40,292 nt of DNA, taken from the NCBI GenBank assembly GCA_029940715.1, contig JAPYTU010000003.1, positions 1-40,292 on the forward strand, read 5' to 3'. Below are positions 1,435 to 8,936 of this stretch, one piece after another. The position numbers were made by a program, and so were the translations under genes. Position 1 is the first letter of the stretch. The number at the start of each line of letters is the position of its first letter. Source of the stretch: Cytophagales bacterium (GTDB lineage Bacteria > Bacteroidota > Bacteroidia > Cytophagales > MED-G16). The notes below the pieces were generated by a model that saw only the letters and a list, made by a program, of their open reading frames with translations, did no database searches and was not told the DNA's origin.

Positions 1435-1472
1435 TGTAAATGATTAAATTGATTCAATATTTTATCTTAAAA

Positions 1473-2639
1473 ATGAACACATTAAAAATAACATTTATAA
1501 CATTATTTTTTGTACTTTTTAGTGGAAATATTATTTCAAATGATAAATCCAATAAACCAAGAAAACTTTTCTTTCCAAATATTGATGGATACCAAACACT
1601 TATTTCAGATTTACACCAACACACAATTTTTTCTGATGGTTTAGTATGGCCAACTATTCGTGTGGATGAAGCAATATACGATGGAGTAGATGTAATATCA
1701 ATGACAGAGCATTTAGAGTATCAACCCCATAGAGAAGATATTCCAAATAAAGACAGAAATAGAGCATACCACTTAACAAAAAGCTATGCTGATAATTTAA
1801 ATAAAAGAAAAAAAGACGATAAAGAACTAATAGTTATAAATGGTCAAGAAATTACAAAAAGCATGCCTCCAGGACATATAAATGCTGTTTTTATAAATGA
1901 AGCAAATAATTTATTACATAAAGATTCACTTACTGGAATCTTAGAAGCAAATAAACAAGGTGCATTTCTATTTTGGAATCATCCAGCATGGCCAGCTCAA
2001 AGAAGTGATGGAATTGCAAGATTAGATGACTATCATAAATACTTAATATCAAACAAATATTTACATGGAATTGAAGTGGTTAATGAGCTAGATTACTCAG
2101 AAGAAGCTTTTCAAATTGCCATTGATAATAATTTAACAATAATGGGAACTTCTGACATTCACGGACTGATAGATTGGATGTTCAAAATTCCTAAGTATGG
2201 TCACAGGCCTGTAACTTTAATATTTTCAAAATCCAAAAAATTAGAAGATATAAAAAATGCTCTTTTCAATGGAAGAACGGTTATTTATTACAATGATTTA
2301 CTCATTGGTAAAAGTATAAATCTAAAACCACTCATTGAAAAAAGTCTAGAAATATCCATAAAAGGGGAAGTAAATCAAGGTTACTCTGAAGATGGAGAAA
2401 GCTCAATTGTTAATATTGAAATTAAAAATCATTCGAGTGCAGATATTATTTTAGAAAATAATTCTGATTATACATTTGAAAATAATGCTGATATATTTAC
2501 AATAAAAGGGTTAAACTCTATAATTCTTAAAACTAAAGTAGGTAAAAGAAAAATTGAAGATCATTTAAATTTTAAAGTTTTAAATGGAATAATAGCACCA
2601 AAAGAATATCTTAAGATAAAACTAGCAACAGGTACTTAA
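1473..2639 (+). CDS. Secreted PHP-domain phosphoesterase (Sb-PDE-like)
   Basis: DLHQHTIFSDG, TEH, WNHP and SDIH metal-binding motifs. The signal peptide fits a start at M12 (1473) better than 1440. Confidence 0.85.
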   Translation: MNTLKITFITLFFVLFSGNIISNDKSNKPRKLFFPNIDGYQTLISDLHQHTIFSDGLVWPTIRVDEAIYDGVDVISMTEHLEYQPHREDIPNKDRNRAYHLTKSYADNLNKRKKDDKELIVINGQEITKSMPPGHINAVFINEANNLLHKDSLTGILEANKQGAFLFWNHPAWPAQRSDGIARLDDYHKYLISNKYLHGIEVVNELDYSEEAFQIAIDNNLTIMGTSDIHGLIDWMFKIPKYGHRPVTLIFSKSKKLEDIKNALFNGRTVIYYNDLLIGKSINLKPLIEKSLEISIKGEVNQGYSEDGESSIVNIEIKNHSSADIILENNSDYTFENNADIFTIKGLNSIILKTKVGKRKIEDHLNFKVLNGIIAPKEYLKIKLATGT

Positions 2640-2642
2640 ATA

Positions 2643-3557
2643 ATGAATCTTAATGTAAAAAATGAAACAGATACATTGGTATCTGTTGTATTAGGAATAG
2701 CAGAGAATTTAGGCCCCAAACCAACAATAGAAAATTGTATTGATCCAAAAACAAAATTTCATATATTAAACAATACATACCCAAAAGAAGATGACTGCAT
2801 AAAAGAAATTGAAAATTTTAAAAACGTATTAAAAAAACATAATATTAACGTTTTAAGGCCTAAGAATAACATCCAAGCTCTAAATCAAATTTTTACAAGA
2901 GACATATCTTTTGTTGTTGAAAATAAATTATTTATACCTGAAATAATTAAAGAAAGAAATAATGAAAAAAATGGAATAAATTCAATAATTGATAATCTTA
3001 GAAATGATCAAAAAATAATTATACCAAAACATATCAAAATTGAAGGAGGAGACATAATACTTAATGATGAATTCATTTTTATTGGATATACTGAAAATAA
3101 TAAATATGTTAATTTAAAAGTATCTAGAACGAATAAAGAATCCCTTGACTACATACAAGAGCAATTTCCAGATAAAACAATAATTGGTATTAAATTGATA
3201 AAAAATGATAAAGACCCTAAAAATAATATATTACATCTTGACTGTACAATGCAACCAATTGGTAATAAAAAAATAATCATATATGAAAATGGCATTTATG
3301 ATAAAAAAGATAGAGATACAATATATGAGATCTATGGAGAAAAGAATTTAGTAAAAATAAATCAAGAAGAAATGTATGAGGGGTGTTCAAATATTTTTTC
3401 AATCAATAAAAAAACTATCGTTTCTGATACAACATTTACTAGACTAAATGAGGAGCTTGAAAGACTAAATTTTTTAATTGAAAAAGTAAATTATAGAGAA
3501 ATATCAAAATTTGGAGGATTATTTAGATGTAGTACTTTACCATTAGAAAGAAAGTAA
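2643..3557 (+). CDS. Arginine deiminase / dimethylargininase (amidinotransferase superfamily) protein
   Basis: FTRD, EGGD, LHLDC and GGLFRC catalytic motifs all intact. Confidence 0.9.
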   Translation: MNLNVKNETDTLVSVVLGIAENLGPKPTIENCIDPKTKFHILNNTYPKEDDCIKEIENFKNVLKKHNINVLRPKNNIQALNQIFTRDISFVVENKLFIPEIIKERNNEKNGINSIIDNLRNDQKIIIPKHIKIEGGDIILNDEFIFIGYTENNKYVNLKVSRTNKESLDYIQEQFPDKTIIGIKLIKNDKDPKNNILHLDCTMQPIGNKKIIIYENGIYDKKDRDTIYEIYGEKNLVKINQEEMYEGCSNIFSINKKTIVSDTTFTRLNEELERLNFLIEKVNYREISKFGGLFRCSTLPLERK

Positions 3558-3603
3558 TAAATCTACCTAAAATATCATTAAATTAATATAATTTAATATA
3601 TTG

Positions 3604-3627
3604 CAGGATACATTATAGGATACATAA
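3604..3627 (+). repeat. Left copy of a 24-bp direct repeat, CAGGATACATTATAGGATACATAA (tandem AGGATACAT, period 12)
   Basis: 23/24 identical to 4786-4809. Ends immediately before the integrase ATG. Confidence 0.95.
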
Positions 3628-4797
3628 ATGAAAATTCAAATTTGGAGAAGAAAAAATAAAGAAAAAGAAAAATATAATTTATACATCAGATACAGACTAA
3701 GTCAGATAAAAGCAAAAGTTGAAAGCTTAAAATTATGGGAGTGGATTTCACCTAACAATATTAGCCAAAAAGAACATAATTTAAATGTCAAAAGAGCATA
3801 TGAGGAAATTCTTAGGAGAAAAAAAGACGATCTTGAAAATAATAGAAGTAAAATAGATTTTAACAGCAAACAGTCAGATGAATTTGAATTTATTTTTAAA
3901 AAATATTCAAAAATTAAAAATTATAATGCTGTATTTAATTTTCTAAAAAAAATTGACTATAACATAGAAAAGAAAAAAATAAATTCAATCAACAAAACTT
4001 ATTTGAATCAATTAAAATATAAAATAGAAAATAAAATCAAAAATAATAATATAAAAGGAACTACATCTGCAAAATATTGGAATAATTTTAAAAGTGTACT
4101 AATACATTTAAATGATAACGGTATTTGTGACTACCCAAGAGTTGGAGGAATTACTTATAAAAAAGAAAACTCTAAAATTTATACCTTTAATAGTGAAGAA
4201 ATAAAAAAACTTAGAAAATCTACTCCAGAAAAATGGAAAGACTTAAAAAAAGCATTTTTCTTTTCATATAACACGGGACTAAAAATAGGTAAGATTGTAA
4301 AATTAAAATGGAAAAATTTATATAAAACAAATAATGATAAAAAAACAATACATTATTTTAAAATCAATAATAATAATGAGACATTAACAAACTCATTACC
4401 AAAAAATATTAGAAAAATGATTGGAAAAAGAAAATCTAATAATGAATTGGTATTCACATTACCAGAAAAACAATCAAATAGATCAAAAATATTTAGAGAG
4501 TGGTTGAATAAATTAAATATCAATGAAAAGAAAAAATTTAATGATGGAGTAAATAATTATGCAAAAAATTTATATGATAAAACAAAAAATATTTACAAAG
4601 TAGCTTCAGCATTAGGACACAATTCTATCAACAAAACAAAAGAAATTTATAACTATATGGAAAATTATGATTTTCTAGAAAATGAAAATATTATAATAGA
4701 AAATTTAGAAGAAAATATAAATCAAACTAAAAGTAAATCTCTATTTAAAAAAGGTAATCTATTAAGTTATAGAATAAAAAAAAATCAGGATACATGA
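3628..4797 (+). CDS. Tyrosine recombinase/integrase-like protein, catalytic residues degenerate
   Basis: Bacteroidota-type arm-binding-like N-terminus (NLYIRY..ESLKLW) and SAM-like middle region. Box I reads FFFSYNTGLK (R to K), box II reads FNDGVNNYA (HxxR lost), while LGH...T..IY is retained. Confidence 0.85.
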   Translation: MKIQIWRRKNKEKEKYNLYIRYRLSQIKAKVESLKLWEWISPNNISQKEHNLNVKRAYEEILRRKKDDLENNRSKIDFNSKQSDEFEFIFKKYSKIKNYNAVFNFLKKIDYNIEKKKINSINKTYLNQLKYKIENKIKNNNIKGTTSAKYWNNFKSVLIHLNDNGICDYPRVGGITYKKENSKIYTFNSEEIKKLRKSTPEKWKDLKKAFFFSYNTGLKIGKIVKLKWKNLYKTNNDKKTIHYFKINNNNETLTNSLPKNIRKMIGKRKSNNELVFTLPEKQSNRSKIFREWLNKLNINEKKKFNDGVNNYAKNLYDKTKNIYKVASALGHNSINKTKEIYNYMENYDFLENENIIIENLEENINQTKSKSLFKKGNLLSYRIKKNQDT

Positions 4798-4809
4798 TAG
4801 GATACATAA
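4786..4809 (+). repeat. Right copy of the 24-bp direct repeat, CAGGATACATGATAGGATACATAA
   Basis: The single mismatch to the left copy (T to G at 4796) creates the integrase TGA stop at 4795-4797. Confidence 0.95.
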
Positions 4810-4869
4810 TAAGAAAATATAGATTAAATTGATAATAAAGTAATAAATAATAATAGAAAAATAATAAAA

Positions 4870-5811
4870 ATGAACTTTTCACAAATCACATCAAGTTTAA
4901 TAATGGTTAAACCTAAACACTTTAACTATAACAAAGAGACAGCAAATAATAACCATTTTCAAAAAGAAGAAAAAATCTTAAATAAAAATGAGATTCAACT
5001 AAAAGCAATTGAAGAATTTGAAAAAATGGTTGAAATAATTAGAAAAGAAAAAATTGAAATTCATGTTTTTAATGATAGAGATAATATAAAGACAACAGAT
5101 AGTATTTTTCCAAATAATTGGATAACTCTACATGAAGATGGAACGGTCATAATATATCCGATGTTCTCAAAAAATAGAAGAAAGGAAAAAAGAAAAGATT
5201 TAACAGAAAAATTGAAAAATAAAGGATATAATATTAACAAAATTATTGACTTATCAAGTTATGAAAAGAAAAAACAATATCTTGAAGGTACTGGAAGCAT
5301 GATACTTGATAGAAAAAACAAAATATGTTATGCCGCATTATCTAAAAGAACAAATGAAATTGTCTTAAATCAACTCTGTAAACTTATAAATTACAAACTT
5401 TTAAAATTTAAAGCATACCAATCTTATAAAAATAAAAGAAAATTAATATATCACACAAATGTTATGATGTGTTTAGCTGATGAATATGCAATAATATGCT
5501 TAGAAAGTATTGATGATGAAAGTGAAAAAAAATTACTAATTAAAAGTCTAAATAATACCAAAAAACAAATAATTGAAATTTCCGAAGGGCAATGCAAAAA
5601 TTTTGTGGGAAATATGCTTCAAGTAAAAAATAAAAAAAATAACAAATACTTAATTATGAGTGAAACAGCTAATAAAAGTCTCAATTTATCTCAAAAAAAA
5701 TCACTTGAAAAATACAATAAATTATTATACAGTAACATAAAATTAATAGAAAAAATAGGAGGGGGTGGGGCAAGATGCATGATTGCAGAAAACTTTTTAC
5801 AAAAAGAATAA
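4870..5811 (+). CDS. ctlX: Citrulline utilization hydrolase CtlX (amidinotransferase family)
   Basis: MVKP..F.YN.ETA.NN.FQ, DSIFPNNW, LEGTGS, YHTNV and GGGARCM motifs. Confidence 0.85.
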   Translation: MNFSQITSSLIMVKPKHFNYNKETANNNHFQKEEKILNKNEIQLKAIEEFEKMVEIIRKEKIEIHVFNDRDNIKTTDSIFPNNWITLHEDGTVIIYPMFSKNRRKEKRKDLTEKLKNKGYNINKIIDLSSYEKKKQYLEGTGSMILDRKNKICYAALSKRTNEIVLNQLCKLINYKLLKFKAYQSYKNKRKLIYHTNVMMCLADEYAIICLESIDDESEKKLLIKSLNNTKKQIIEISEGQCKNFVGNMLQVKNKKNNKYLIMSETANKSLNLSQKKSLEKYNKLLYSNIKLIEKIGGGGARCMIAENFLQKE

Positions 5812-5836
5812 AAGATGTAAATTGTAAAAAAAATAA

Positions 5837-6223
5837 ATGAGAAAAAAAGCAATTCTAACAAAAAAAGCTCCTTTACCAATTGGGCCATACAATCAAGCAA
5901 TACAATTTGATAGTTTACTATTTATTTCAGGTCAAATACCACTTAATCCAAAAAACGGAAAATTAATTTCATCAGGAATAAAAGAAGAAACAAATAAAGT
6001 CATGACTAATATCCAATATATTCTCGAAGAAGCAAAAATGAATTTTAATAATGTTGTAAAGACTACAATCTTCCTAAAAGACATGAATGACTTTGTTGAA
6101 GTTAATACTGAATATGCAAAGTTTTTTGAAAATTGTATTCCACCAGCTAGAGAAACTGTACAAGTATCACAATTACCAAAAAATGTAAATATTGAAATTT
6201 CTTGTATAGCAATTAAAGACTAA
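5837..6223 (+). CDS. ridA: RidA family reactive intermediate/imine deaminase
   Basis: APLPIGPYNQA, SGQIP and PPARETVQVSQLP..VNIEI. Confidence 0.9.
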   Translation: MRKKAILTKKAPLPIGPYNQAIQFDSLLFISGQIPLNPKNGKLISSGIKEETNKVMTNIQYILEEAKMNFNNVVKTTIFLKDMNDFVEVNTEYAKFFENCIPPARETVQVSQLPKNVNIEISCIAIKD

Positions 6224-7747
6224 ATGTCAGATAATATTAGATTAAGGTTTGCACCAAGCCCAACAGGACCTCTACATATAGGAGGTCTAAGAACCGCATT
6301 ATATAATTACTTGATCTCAAAAAAATCAAAAGGAAAATTTATACTTAGAATTGAAGATACAGACCTAAAAAGGTATAATAAAAAGGCAGAAAAACACATT
6401 TTAGATTCGCTTAAATGGTGCGGAATATCACCTGATGAAAGTCCAGAAAAACCTGGAAATTATGGCCCATACAGACAATCTGAAAGAAAAAACATATACA
6501 AAAAATTTATTGCCATACTCATAAAATCAGGAAACGCTTATTTTGCTTTTGATAAAAAAGAAAAATTAGAAGAAAAGAGAAAAAAGTGTGAAAAAAATGG
6601 AGAAACATTTATTTATAATTGGCACAATAGATTAAAATTTAACAATTCTTTATCTATCAGAAATGAAAAAACTAAAAAACTAACTCAGAATAATAATTAT
6701 GTTGTCAGATTTAAAACAGTTCATTCTGGTAAGAGTAAAAATATGATAACAGTTAATGATGAAATAAGAGGAAAAATACAAGTTGATCTAAATAATTTAG
6801 ATGACAAAATAATATGTAAAAGTGATGGAATGCCAACGTATCATCTAGCTAATGTAGTAGATGATTACCTAATGAAAATTACTCACGTAATAAGAGGTGA
6901 AGAATGGTTGCCTTCATTAGCATTACACTGTCAACTATATAATGCTTTTGGATGGGAAAAACCAAAATTTGCTCATCTCCCATTAATACTCAAACCTACA
7001 GGAACTGGAAAATTAAGTAAGAGAGATGGAGAAAAATACGGATTTCCAGTTTACCCTATAAAATGGAAAGATGAATCAAAAAAATCTGAAATTAAAGGAT
7101 TTAAAGAATTAGGATATGAATCAAAAGCATTAATAAATTTTATATGTTTTATAGGTTGGAATCCAGGAAATGAAAATGAAATTTTATCTCTAAATGAATT
7201 AATAGAAAATTTTTCAATAAATAGAATAATTAAATCTGGCGCTAAATATGATATAGAAAAAGCAAAATGGTTTAACCAATCATATGTAAGAAAATTACCT
7301 AATAAAACTTTTAAAATTATTCTAGAAAATAAAATTAATATTTCCCAGCTAAACAGCGAAAGAATTAATAAAATAATTGAACTTTTGAAAGAAAGATTAA
7401 CCTTTAAAAACGATATATTAATTGAATCAAATAATATTTTAGAAGAACCCAAAAATTTAGATAAAAATTTTATTAATAAAGAATGGTCAAAAGATTTAAA
7501 TAATGTAATAATAGAATTAAATAGATATATTAAAGAAAATCATCTTATAAAACCTGAAAAAATAAAAGATTATTATTTAAATCAGTTAAAAAATAATAAT
7601 ATAAAAATTGGAATAGGTATGCAAGCATTAAGATTATGCATAATAGGAAAAATTAGTGGTCCAGATCTATTTATAATAATTGAAATATTAGGAAATTCTA
7701 AAATAAATAAAAGAATATCAAAAACACTAAACAAGATCAATGATTAA
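6224..7747 (+). CDS. gltX: Glutamate--tRNA ligase
   Basis: RFAPSPTGPLHIGG, RIEDTD and KLSKR. Confidence 0.97.
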   Translation: MSDNIRLRFAPSPTGPLHIGGLRTALYNYLISKKSKGKFILRIEDTDLKRYNKKAEKHILDSLKWCGISPDESPEKPGNYGPYRQSERKNIYKKFIAILIKSGNAYFAFDKKEKLEEKRKKCEKNGETFIYNWHNRLKFNNSLSIRNEKTKKLTQNNNYVVRFKTVHSGKSKNMITVNDEIRGKIQVDLNNLDDKIICKSDGMPTYHLANVVDDYLMKITHVIRGEEWLPSLALHCQLYNAFGWEKPKFAHLPLILKPTGTGKLSKRDGEKYGFPVYPIKWKDESKKSEIKGFKELGYESKALINFICFIGWNPGNENEILSLNELIENFSINRIIKSGAKYDIEKAKWFNQSYVRKLPNKTFKIILENKINISQLNSERINKIIELLKERLTFKNDILIESNNILEEPKNLDKNFINKEWSKDLNNVIIELNRYIKENHLIKPEKIKDYYLNQLKNNNIKIGIGMQALRLCIIGKISGPDLFIIIEILGNSKINKRISKTLNKIND

Positions 7748-8936
7748 AATTGGTATAATTAAAGAAAATAAAATTCCAACTGATAATAGGGCTCCTCTAA
7801 CTCCAAAACAGGCCAAAAAAATTCAAAATAATGGAATAGACATAGTTTGTCAAACTAGCGATATAAGATGCTTTTCTGATATAGAATACAAAAAATATAA
7901 TATCAAAATTGTTGATAATCTAGATGATCGCGATATCATTTTTGGAATTAAAGAAGTTCCAATAAAAAATTTGATAAAAAATAAAACTTATTTTTTCTTT
8001 TCACACACTATTAAAAAACAACCTCAAAATGAGAAATTGCTTAAAGAAGGCATTAAAAAAAAGATAAAACTTATAGATTATGAATGTTTAATAGAAAACA
8101 ATTTACGAATTATTGCTTTTGGAAAATATGCTGGTATCGTTGGATCATATAATTCATTACTTGCATATGGAATAAAAACAAAAAAATTTTATTTAAAAAG
8201 TCTATCTAAATTCAAAGACTATAAAAATTTAAAAAATAAAATTAAAAATATTAAAATAAATGAAGCTTTTAAAATTTTAATTATAGGTAATGGTAAAGTA
8301 GCAAATGGAGCAACAGAACTGCTCGATTTATTAAAAATAAAAAAAATAAATACATCAAATTATATTAATAAGGAATATTCATACCCTGTATATTGTCAAC
8401 TTGAAGTCACTGATTATATGAAAAACCCCGATGACACTAGCTTTGTTGAGAACGAATATTTTAATAATCCAAAACTATTTAAGTCAAATTTTTATAAATA
8501 TAGTAAAGCAACAGATATTTTAATTAATGCAGCCTACTGGGATCCTAAATCACCAAAATTATTTGAAGAAGACTTTATAATGAATAAAAATTTTAAAACT
8601 AGAGTTATTGGAGATATAAGTTGTGATATAAATGGAGCCATACCATGCACAAAAAAGGCTTCTACAATAAAAGACCCATTTTATGATTACAATTCAAAAA
8701 CAAAAAATATAGAAAAAGCTTTTAACAACAAAAGTAATATCACTATTATGGCTGTTGATAACTTGCCATCCGAACTCCCAAAAGATTCTTCCAAATTTTT
8801 TGGAGAAATTATTATCAAAAAAATAATTCCTCTAATTGCATCTGCAAAAAGATCAAGTATTATTGAAAATGCTACAATAATAAAAAATGGTCAGTTAACC
8901 CCTAAATATGATTATTTAACGGACTATATTAAATGA
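7740..8936 (+). CDS. Saccharopine dehydrogenase / lysine-ketoglutarate reductase-like NAD(P)-dependent oxidoreductase (AlaDh/PNT fold)
   Basis: GIIKE..P.D.RAPLTP, GIKEVP, FFSHTIKKQ, DISCD and MAVDNLPSELP. Confidence 0.85.
   Translation: MIKIGIIKENKIPTDNRAPLTPKQAKKIQNNGIDIVCQTSDIRCFSDIEYKKYNIKIVDNLDDRDIIFGIKEVPIKNLIKNKTYFFFSHTIKKQPQNEKLLKEGIKKKIKLIDYECLIENNLRIIAFGKYAGIVGSYNSLLAYGIKTKKFYLKSLSKFKDYKNLKNKIKNIKINEAFKILIIGNGKVANGATELLDLLKIKKINTSNYINKEYSYPVYCQLEVTDYMKNPDDTSFVENEYFNNPKLFKSNFYKYSKATDILINAAYWDPKSPKLFEEDFIMNKNFKTRVIGDISCDINGAIPCTKKASTIKDPFYDYNSKTKNIEKAFNNKSNITIMAVDNLPSELPKDSSKFFGEIIIKKIIPLIASAKRSSIIENATIIKNGQLTPKYDYLTDYIK

Follow-up and report, generated by a model that had tools for sequence, protein, structure and literature searches.

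We analysed an int-like gene, which encodes a homologue of tyrosine-recombinase integrases, on a 40,292-nucleotide stretch of DNA from Cytophagales bacterium (contig JAPYTU010000003.1; this whole stretch is called the window below). The gene carries a pair of short direct repeats at each of its two ends, and the repeats as well as the protein are maintained across the bacterial family. The three features at the centre of this work are:

3604 to 3627, forward strand: 5′ pair of arm-type direct repeats, CAGGATACATTATAGGATACATAA, with units AGGATACAT at 3605-3613 and 3617-3625, 12 bp apart
3628 to 4797, forward strand: Int-like open reading frame (ORF) of 389 aa, a catalytically degenerate three-domain tyrosine-recombinase homologue, characterised by PF00589, an AlphaFold2 (AF2) model, Foldseek and the ratio of nonsynonymous to synonymous substitution rates (dN/dS)
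4786 to 4809, forward strand: 3′ pair of arm-type direct repeats, CAGGATACATGATAGGATACATAA, with units at 4787-4795 and 4799-4807

On inspection of the sequence, the 5′ pair touches the ATG at 3628 with a gap of 0 nt. The 3′ pair overlaps the TGA stop codon (4795-4797) of the ORF and ends 60 nt before the ATG of the downstream gene ctlX (4870). A repeat search of the window returned both pairs as one two-copy family of 24 nt, 96% identical and 1182 nt apart from start to start. The single 9-mer AGGATACAT is not enriched: the window holds 12 matches at ≤1 mismatch against 12.3 expected, and the genome (1.62 Mb, 27.5% GC) holds 20 exact copies against ~18 expected from composition. The paired form AGGATACAT-N3-AGGATACAT, with ≤2 mismatches allowed, occurs three times in the genome, and two of these matches are the ends of the int-like gene. 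The third lies on contig C25, has 2 mismatches and falls inside a 486-aa ORF. The genome scan for other pairs proposed with the original prediction thus recovered the two known sites and added this one imperfect match. No wider regulon was seen in the window's genome, where the 9-mer and an 8-mer stand at background frequency.

For the paired arrangement, the decisive evidence against chance comes from the comparison of orthologous sequences. The family set contained 25 genomes (the window's genome, G000, and 24 others), the locus is assembled in 23 of them, and 20 orthologous loci were fetched for the repeat analysis. GGATACA-N5-GGATACA is present at both gene ends in 20/20 loci, and the identity of the encoded proteins goes down to 41–54%. 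The 12-bp spacing is kept in 40/40 pairs. Of all heptamers 76/80 are perfect, and the four exceptions deviate at the last base alone. In every locus the 5′ pair ends about 1–3 nt before the start codon, which is ATG in 9 loci and TTG in 11, and the 3′ pair lies at or around the stop codon with all 40 heptamers perfect; the distance from pair to pair is 1132–1174 bp. The stop codon falls before, between or after the 3′ repeats, depending on the locus. Therefore, the repeats are conserved as DNA, and coding constraint does not explain them. A zero-mismatch search for GGATACA-N5-GGATACA in the 25 family genomes returned 40 matches, all at the ends of the int-like gene. One-mismatch pairs number 17 in the same genomes, 7 at the locus and 10 elsewhere, the latter comparable in order to the 5 obtained with the reversed pattern as control. 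In the loci with a TTG start (11/20, including L006–L014 and L016), the TTG always stands 3–4 nt past the second 5′ repeat. One locus, L011 (G017), has a third unit at the 12-bp period at the 3′ gene end, AGATACA-N5-GGATACA-N5-GGATACA.

Selection on the repeats is strongly supported by these sequence comparisons. Pairwise identity over the motif columns (28 positions, 20 loci) is 0.97 at the 5′ end and 1.0 at the 3′ end, whereas the spacers within the pairs reach only 0.58–0.67 and the 30 nt outside the pairs only 0.44–0.47, where ~0.30 is expected from composition. The same figures bear on the idea that the insertion simply left the repeats behind as neutral scars (a target-site duplication, or what remains of attL/attR) that serve no function today. 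Junction repeats would bracket an inserted gene exactly, as these do, but the adjoining intergenic DNA has decayed around motifs that have stayed nearly intact, and the empty site of an outgroup, described below, contains no GGATACA. We give this explanation a negligible chance. The original prediction had described tandem direct repeats of four units and 12-bp period bracketing an integrase gene, had taken them to be under selection, and had asked whether homologs are flanked in the same way; the positions 3604-3627 and 4786-4809, the motif and flank identities and the 20 loci with pairs at both ends bear it out on all three counts. It had also expected repeats and protein to co-vary among homologs, which did not hold: the repeats are constant, so that nothing varies.

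A function in RNA is another possibility for such elements. The repeats could be elements of the 5′ and 3′ untranslated regions of the int-like mRNA, or their proximal AGGA could act like a Shine-Dalgarno element, in either case with an effect on translation or mRNA stability. The proximal 5′ unit places AGGA 7 nt before the ATG, and the repeats are probably transcribed, as contigs from an RNA library (run X17) lie on the gene and one of them covers 4676–4825, with DNA carry-over possible and starts and ends not resolved. However, the same motif recurs at the 3′ end, 30–67 nt from the next start and thus too distant for ribosome binding. In addition, every pair keeps its two members at exactly 12 bp, a constancy that a Shine-Dalgarno element does not need, and direct repeats are unable to pair with each other. 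A role in RNA appears quite improbable to us.

The protein between the repeats belongs to the tyrosine recombinase superfamily by both the sequence and the fold of its catalytic domain, in agreement with the integrase-like protein of the original prediction. PF00589 is the sole Pfam match (E=5e-11, 43.1 bits against a cut-off of 27.1). The full-length AF2 model, with a predicted local distance difference test (pLDDT) score of 82, contains an N-terminal β3-α domain (residues 2–70), a core-binding domain, a catalytic domain and a disordered tail (348–389). Foldseek matches this model to XerH, XerA, Tn1549 Int, Cre and full-length λ Int chains with probability 1.00, and a profile search of the PDB at E≤1 returned only XerA 5hxy (E=1.4e-4) and HP1 integrase. 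The parts of the ORF are:

3628 to 3846, forward strand: N-terminal domain (N-domain, aa 1–73), three β-strands and a long helix, the most conserved part of the protein and the presumed arm-site binder
3883 to 4116, forward strand: core-binding (SAM-like) helical domain, about aa 86–163, from the helices of the model and the hhalign match to P0078
4192 to 4662, forward strand: catalytic-fold domain, about aa 189–345, with K219 at Arg-I, N/V/N for H-x-x-R-H, and GH and Tyr341 kept, from a hidden Markov model alignment to XerA 5hxy
4741 to 4770, forward strand: C-terminal tail motif LFKKGNLLSY, conserved after a variable disordered linker

The protein shares with Bacteroidetes integrases the Phage_int_SAM_5 core-binding domain and the catalytic domain, a homology expected of the IntCTnDOT type. 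In hhalign, alignment A1 matches the Polaribacter integrase P0078, a carrier of PF13102 and PF00589, with a probability of 99.1% and E=4e-19 over 261 columns (87–355) that span both domains. Outside the family, the protein is closest in sequence to site-specific integrases of Bacteroidetes/Flavobacteriia, whose layout is PF17293-PF13102-PF00589. In a profile search of 1.84 billion representatives, three full-length representatives of the orthologs score 518–574 bits, and the scores then fall to 135 bits. P0129 (135 bits) and P0132 (124 bits) are the closest relatives with an intact catalytic site, and no genomic locus for either was found in genome, viral and metagenome contigs or in 401 genomes of the order.

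The substitution pattern shows that the whole protein is under purifying selection, which is strongest in the N-domain. dN/dS is 0.11–0.28 for the whole protein (eight pairs) and 0.03–0.24 for the N-domain in seven pairs, the eighth being undefined because dS is saturated. Residues 1–73 hold 23 of the 47 invariant columns of A1, and the N-domain modelled in isolation reaches pLDDT 89 with three strands and a helix. Lysine and arginine make up 22% of the residues of the protein. The tail motif LFKKGNLLSY has pLDDT <50 in the monomer model, and its codons differ synonymously from locus to locus; a role as docking peptide, for a partner or an adjacent protomer, is conceivable. A homodimer prediction (A1, two copies) gave a score of 0.12 against a mark of 0.42, which counts neither way on oligomerisation.

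The loss of catalytic residues, also part of the original prediction, holds for the window's genome, where Arg-I and the HxxR box are replaced, and is not uniform in the family, as one genus (g3) keeps the box. Active enzymes have the pentad R-K-H-R-H/W and the Tyr nucleophile. In the alignment to XerA and intact relatives, the window protein departs from it with K219 at Arg-I and N-x-x-V-N for the H-x-x-R-H box, and retains GH and Tyr341. Among 23 family sequences, the Arg-I position is never R; it is K in 18, S in 3, N in 1 and unresolved in 1. Arg-II has given way to V or I in 20 sequences and is still R in the other 3; His-II is likewise kept as H in 3 and replaced in 20, and the Tyr nucleophile is kept in 21. 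Within the IntCTnDOT subgroup, Arg-I is described as often absent in active enzymes, with another arginine further downstream as the substitute (PMC8138268, section 11), and the CTnDOT integrase is among those without Arg-I (PMC8138268). The case for inactivity therefore depends on the HxxR box being lost as well. In g1 and g2 (the window's genus and the largest genus), Arg-II and His-II are both gone, a stronger sign that these proteins no longer cut DNA. As a separate observation, the distant Flavobacteriia relatives P0078, P0079 and P0080, in which Pfam recognises arm-binding and core-binding domains, have G or A at Arg-I, and P0078 and P0079 have Y for His-II.

The neighbours of the int-like gene are the same throughout the family, which consists of small (1.0–1.8 Mb), AT-rich Flavobacteriales genomes. 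In the window they are:

2643 to 3557, forward strand: upstream neighbour, gene for a guanidino-group-modifying (amidinotransferase / arginine-deiminase-like) enzyme, from weak NCBIfam matches below cut-off
4870 to 5811, forward strand: ctlX (citrulline utilization hydrolase), NCBIfam NF046062 with E=7.9e-121, above cut-off; first gene of the ctlX-ridA-gltX run

The amidinotransferase-like gene bounds the ancient insertion site on its left and is the upstream neighbour in 20/20 loci; ctlX, ridA and the start of gltX follow downstream in 19, and the 20th locus stops at a contig end. A homologue search covered 61 genomes, namely G000 and 60 relatives (24 from the same family and 36 from 21 other families). 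The int-like gene is single copy in G000, and 22 of the 24 other family genomes have one ortholog-level match each (E 1e-52 to 1e-224, 41–90% identity). Other families gave weak generic integrase matches at most, in 4 of 36 genomes (best E 8e-13). The syntenic site of the gene is identical in all 23 family genomes with an assembled locus. The absence of a match in the other two family genomes does not show a loss of the gene. In G019 (84% complete), both flanking genes are missing as well, which means that the locus is unassembled, and in G009 (61% complete), the contig stops 123 nt past the upstream gene, and its last stretch carries a repeat pair with one mismatch.

An empty site is found in three genomes of family f2 (L029–L031), in which the amidinotransferase-like gene adjoins ctlX across a spacer of ~45 bp that lacks GGATACA. 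These are the only cases among 25 ctlX loci of other families with the upstream gene next to ctlX; the remaining 22 have no such neighbour within 1.5 kb. Before the insertion, the two guanidino-group enzyme genes probably formed one transcription unit. The GC content at third codon positions (GC3) of the int-like gene is 0.146, compared with 0.13–0.17 in its neighbours. Its pairwise protein identity tracks that of ctlX and the upstream gene with rho 0.62 and 0.69, respectively, over 120 non-independent pairs from 16 loci; three N-rich loci and the contig-end locus without ctlX (L010) were left out. No tRNA gene lies near the locus. The single copy, constant site, neighbour-like GC3 and tracking divergence indicate that the insertion was ancient and single and has been inherited vertically.

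The one-gene mobile element of the original prediction does not survive these data. Presence, position and copy number do not vary in the family as they would for an integrative mobile element, no excised forms were seen in the contigs examined, and the empty site occurs in another family only. A mobile one-gene element is not supported, given the single copy, the same site family-wide, the GC3 and the divergence that tracks the neighbours. Its two alternatives, a target-site duplication and a cassette mobilised in trans, fall to the same evidence of a fixed, single-copy and vertically inherited gene. It had further suggested a search for an excised circle or an empty-site joint, for which we used Logan contigs from DNA runs X5 and X6 and from two RNA runs. 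No listed contig joint links the two pairs, a weak test in which rare forms could go unseen, and contigs from an independent DNA run bridge both junctions in the integrated form. The sole listed joint goes from 3850 to 4035, in one contig (side 21), and lies in A-rich coding DNA.

A related alternative is that the locus still works as a recombination module, at least in g3, either as a minimal excisable or mobile element or by programmed excision and renewed joining of the upstream gene and ctlX, in which the repeats would be att-arm sites. The gene is bracketed exactly by direct repeats, and the joined order of upstream gene and ctlX exists in the outgroup and is hence viable. The g3 proteins (3/23 sequences; L022, L054 and L055, from G005, G003 and G007) keep Lys, HxxRH, GH and Tyr, and have Ser at Arg-I, the residue of IntDOT at this position. 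A substitute arginine would be possible in the IntCTnDOT subgroup as it is described (PMC8138268). The g3 orthologues share the syntenic site and the repeat pairs of the other genera. Against a working module stand the single copy at one site in 23/23 assembled loci, the loss of Arg-II and His-II in 20/23 sequences, including the window's, and the contigs of the independent run that bridge both junctions, with no joint between the pairs listed, although rare forms could escape contigs. In addition, no core-type site, that is, no conserved inverted repeat and no sequence common to both junctions other than the heptamer pairs, was found in the 5/23 loci and the window that were inspected, where a degenerate core could be missed. 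Excision would also lose the gene, yet the gene is kept everywhere. We see little probability in a module that still recombines.

The position of the repeats relative to transcription is informative for their possible role. The candidate promoter element in the window is:

3589 to 3604, forward strand: candidate promoter −7 region, weak in the window's genome, with two-mismatch versions only

In an anchored alignment, a (G)TATTTTT(G/A) box similar to the Bacteroidetes −7 consensus TAnnTTTG precedes the first 5′ repeat by 1–15 nt in most loci. A σ70 promoter scan was uninformative (15 found against 15.1 expected). Because the −7-like box stands just upstream, the 5′ pair would lie at or just past the predicted transcription start, a position fit for self-repression. 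Downstream, the 30–67 nt that separate the 3′ pair from the start codon of ctlX contain no −7-like box in these loci and would be too short for a promoter of their own, and a terminator scan, uninformative like that for σ70 promoters, found no terminator there. The window has seven same-strand genes in an operon-like array at 1440-8936, in the order PHP-type metallohydrolase, amidinotransferase-like gene, int-like gene, ctlX, ridA, gltX and a 398-aa ORF. The gaps in this array are -8 to 25 nt except for the 70 and 72 nt that flank the int-like gene, both of which hold the repeat pairs. With genes on the same strand and a small 3′ gap free of a −7-like box or terminator, transcription into ctlX-ridA-gltX probably crosses the 3′ pair.

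Our data lean, by slightly more than an even chance, toward a domesticated IntCTnDOT-type integrase whose N-domain would bind the repeats as arm-type sites, repress its own gene and gate transcription into ctlX-ridA-gltX, possibly by looping. The anatomy of the locus, the selection on protein and sites, the immobility of the gene and the finding that the sites are unique within every genome are established here; binding, repression and looping are inferred. As to origin, an IntCTnDOT-type three-domain recombinase may have inserted between the amidinotransferase-like gene and ctlX in the family ancestor and then been inherited vertically. The present locus would be the remainder of a minimal integrated element: an integrase gene framed by arm-type sites that lie a short way inside the two junctions, with the core sites and the chemistry gone. 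The N-domain would recognise the GGATACA heptamers as former arm-type sites, with two protomers per pair. When the 5′ pair at the transcription start is occupied, synthesis from the int-like gene itself would be shut down. At the 3′ pair, the protein may form a roadblock, or it may provide the second anchor of a ~1.15-kb loop through recombinase-type oligomerisation, and the occupancy of this pair would set the amount of transcription that enters ctlX-ridA-gltX. Autoregulation by the left pair, with the right pair acting on ctlX-ridA-gltX or in looping, as the original prediction had suggested, would be the most likely mechanism. More speculatively, a dimer of dimers of the dead heterobivalent integrase might clamp both pairs and keep its own gene looped out amid the operon-like array, making the ~1.15-kb loop a self-limiting gate or insulator of the citrulline/arginine genes and the essential gltX, with g3 as a living intermediate; we regard this elaboration as possible but doubtful. 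If true, it would be the first host-domesticated tyrosine recombinase with an arm-binding domain, a fossil intasome serving as a host regulatory device.

Several observations count against a domesticated arm-site-binding regulator and have to be set beside it. The N-domain has no match at E≤1 to PF17293, the Bacteroidetes arm-binding model, and no Foldseek match at E≤0.001. In VIA-align, its comparison with the arm-binding domain of HPI integrase (3jtz) gives Z 4.1 and a root-mean-square deviation of 2.9 over 55 residues, at rank 20 and tied with unrelated folds. The window's own genome has only a degenerate form of the −7-like box. The invariance of the sites means that co-variation cannot link the protein to the repeats. 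A regulator whose perfect sites flank only its own gene requires a real downstream effect to be retained in a streamlined genome. The absence of core-type repeats fits a protein that does not recombine but leaves the roles of the core-binding and catalytic domains unexplained. Lastly, the residues kept by the g3 proteins suggest that catalysis may survive there, in a catalytically competent intermediate.

The weak structural likeness of the N-domain bears as well on the alternative that another host factor for tandem repeats, such as a winged-helix response regulator, binds the sites, and that the int-like protein has an unrelated role or none there. Regulators of the OmpR/PhoB type typically use seven-base direct repeats with an 11–12 bp period. 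The lack of a significant match between the N-domain and solved arm-binding domains would suit a host factor, and so would a link between protein and sites that is drawn by inference. However, perfect pairs occur in 25 genomes solely at the two ends of the int-like gene, and the adjacent protein has a domain of arm-binding topology that is its most conserved part. A separate regulator with just two targets that bracket a former integrase would be a coincidence. We consider a host factor unlikely.

By comparison with known systems, IntS of prophage KplE1 in E. coli is close in terms of regulation, as are other integrase genes with a promoter that attL overlaps. IntS is an active integrase described to repress its own promoter at attL, and an arm-type P′1 site overlapping the −10 element was implicated, although mutation of P′1 also killed the promoter (PMC2951348). 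The shared features are sites for an integrase arm domain on the integrase's own promoter and self-repression (PMC2951348), both of which are predicted rather than observed for the int-like gene. The differences are that IntS is an active prophage recombinase that adjoins a tRNA gene and works with core sites and a directionality factor (PMC2951348), whereas the int-like protein is inactive in most of the family, has no prophage, tRNA or cargo, and possesses a second pair at the 3′ end.

A different parallel is found in SPbeta-like Bacillus phages, where tyrosine-recombinase folds that have lost catalysis act as master repressors, as described for MrpR (YopR) (PMC10516654) and SroF (bioRxiv 10.1101/2025.11.27.690993). 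The int-like protein resembles them as a tyrosine-recombinase fold with lost catalytic residues and a presumed role as a DNA-binding regulator. In contrast, MrpR and SroF, in these accounts, are phage-borne, consist of core-binding and catalytic domains only, and use these domains to bind a 26-bp box as monomers, whereas the int-like gene is chromosomal and vertically inherited and has an extra N-terminal domain and candidate arm-type sites of 7 bp. MrpR (8A0A) is not among the PDB profile matches at E≤1, and no sequence kinship is detectable at that threshold. The likeness is thus functional and not by descent.

IntDOT and the IntCTnDOT group (PMC8138268, PMC2817482) share the three-domain layout with the int-like protein, and Arg-I is missing here as in some of their members, with Ser at this position in g3. 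They are described as active enzymes encoded by conjugative or mobilizable elements, with an asymmetric arrangement of five arm sites about the core (PMC8138268, PMC2817482). Here, instead, Arg-II and His-II are lost in 20/23 sequences, a core site was not found in the loci inspected, there are no other genes, and the locus is immobile. λ Int offers a further likeness, in that its small N-domain binds high-affinity arm sites, some of them adjacent direct repeats (P′1, P′2), on both arms, and its tetramer bridges distant DNA (PMC4880445). In that description, however, λ Int requires core sites, IHF, Xis and Fis and catalyses exchange (PMC4880445). At the int-like locus there are arm-like sites and the protein alone; a bridge, should one form, would hold the gene in a static loop, and the oligomerisation is putative. 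We propose that the int-like protein belongs by descent with the IntCTnDOT-type integrases and works like IntS and MrpR/SroF.

Self-repression of integrases through arm sites and the decay of recombinase folds into phage repressors are known already. What is new is their combination in a host-fixed, family-wide homologue of an arm-binding-domain integrase, with arm-site pairs nearly unchanged at both ends of its gene. A survey of tyrosine recombinases presents arm-binding domains as marks of mobile-element enzymes and not of housekeeping ones (PMC8138268), and we found no account of such a host-fixed case in open-access papers or bioRxiv preprints. Here an integrase homologue has become fixed as a core gene in a family of very small genomes, where useless DNA quickly goes. 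Its chemistry has decayed in two of three genera, while its four candidate cognate sites stay nearly base for base. The outgroup with an empty site, the one genus with catalytic residues and the two without provide a natural series from a mobile-element enzyme to a host DNA-binding protein. In addition, the N-domain of ~75 residues and the 7-bp site with its 12-bp period form a compact candidate protein-site pair, the specificity of which is directly testable.

Sequence from this locus recurs in environmental data. For the region 3000-5400 of the window, 84–100% of the sampled words are contained in each of eight DNA runs that carry the label hydrothermal vent metagenome and come from five studies. 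Three of these eight runs may be the origin of the window's DNA, and several marine metagenome runs contain ~42–46% of the words.

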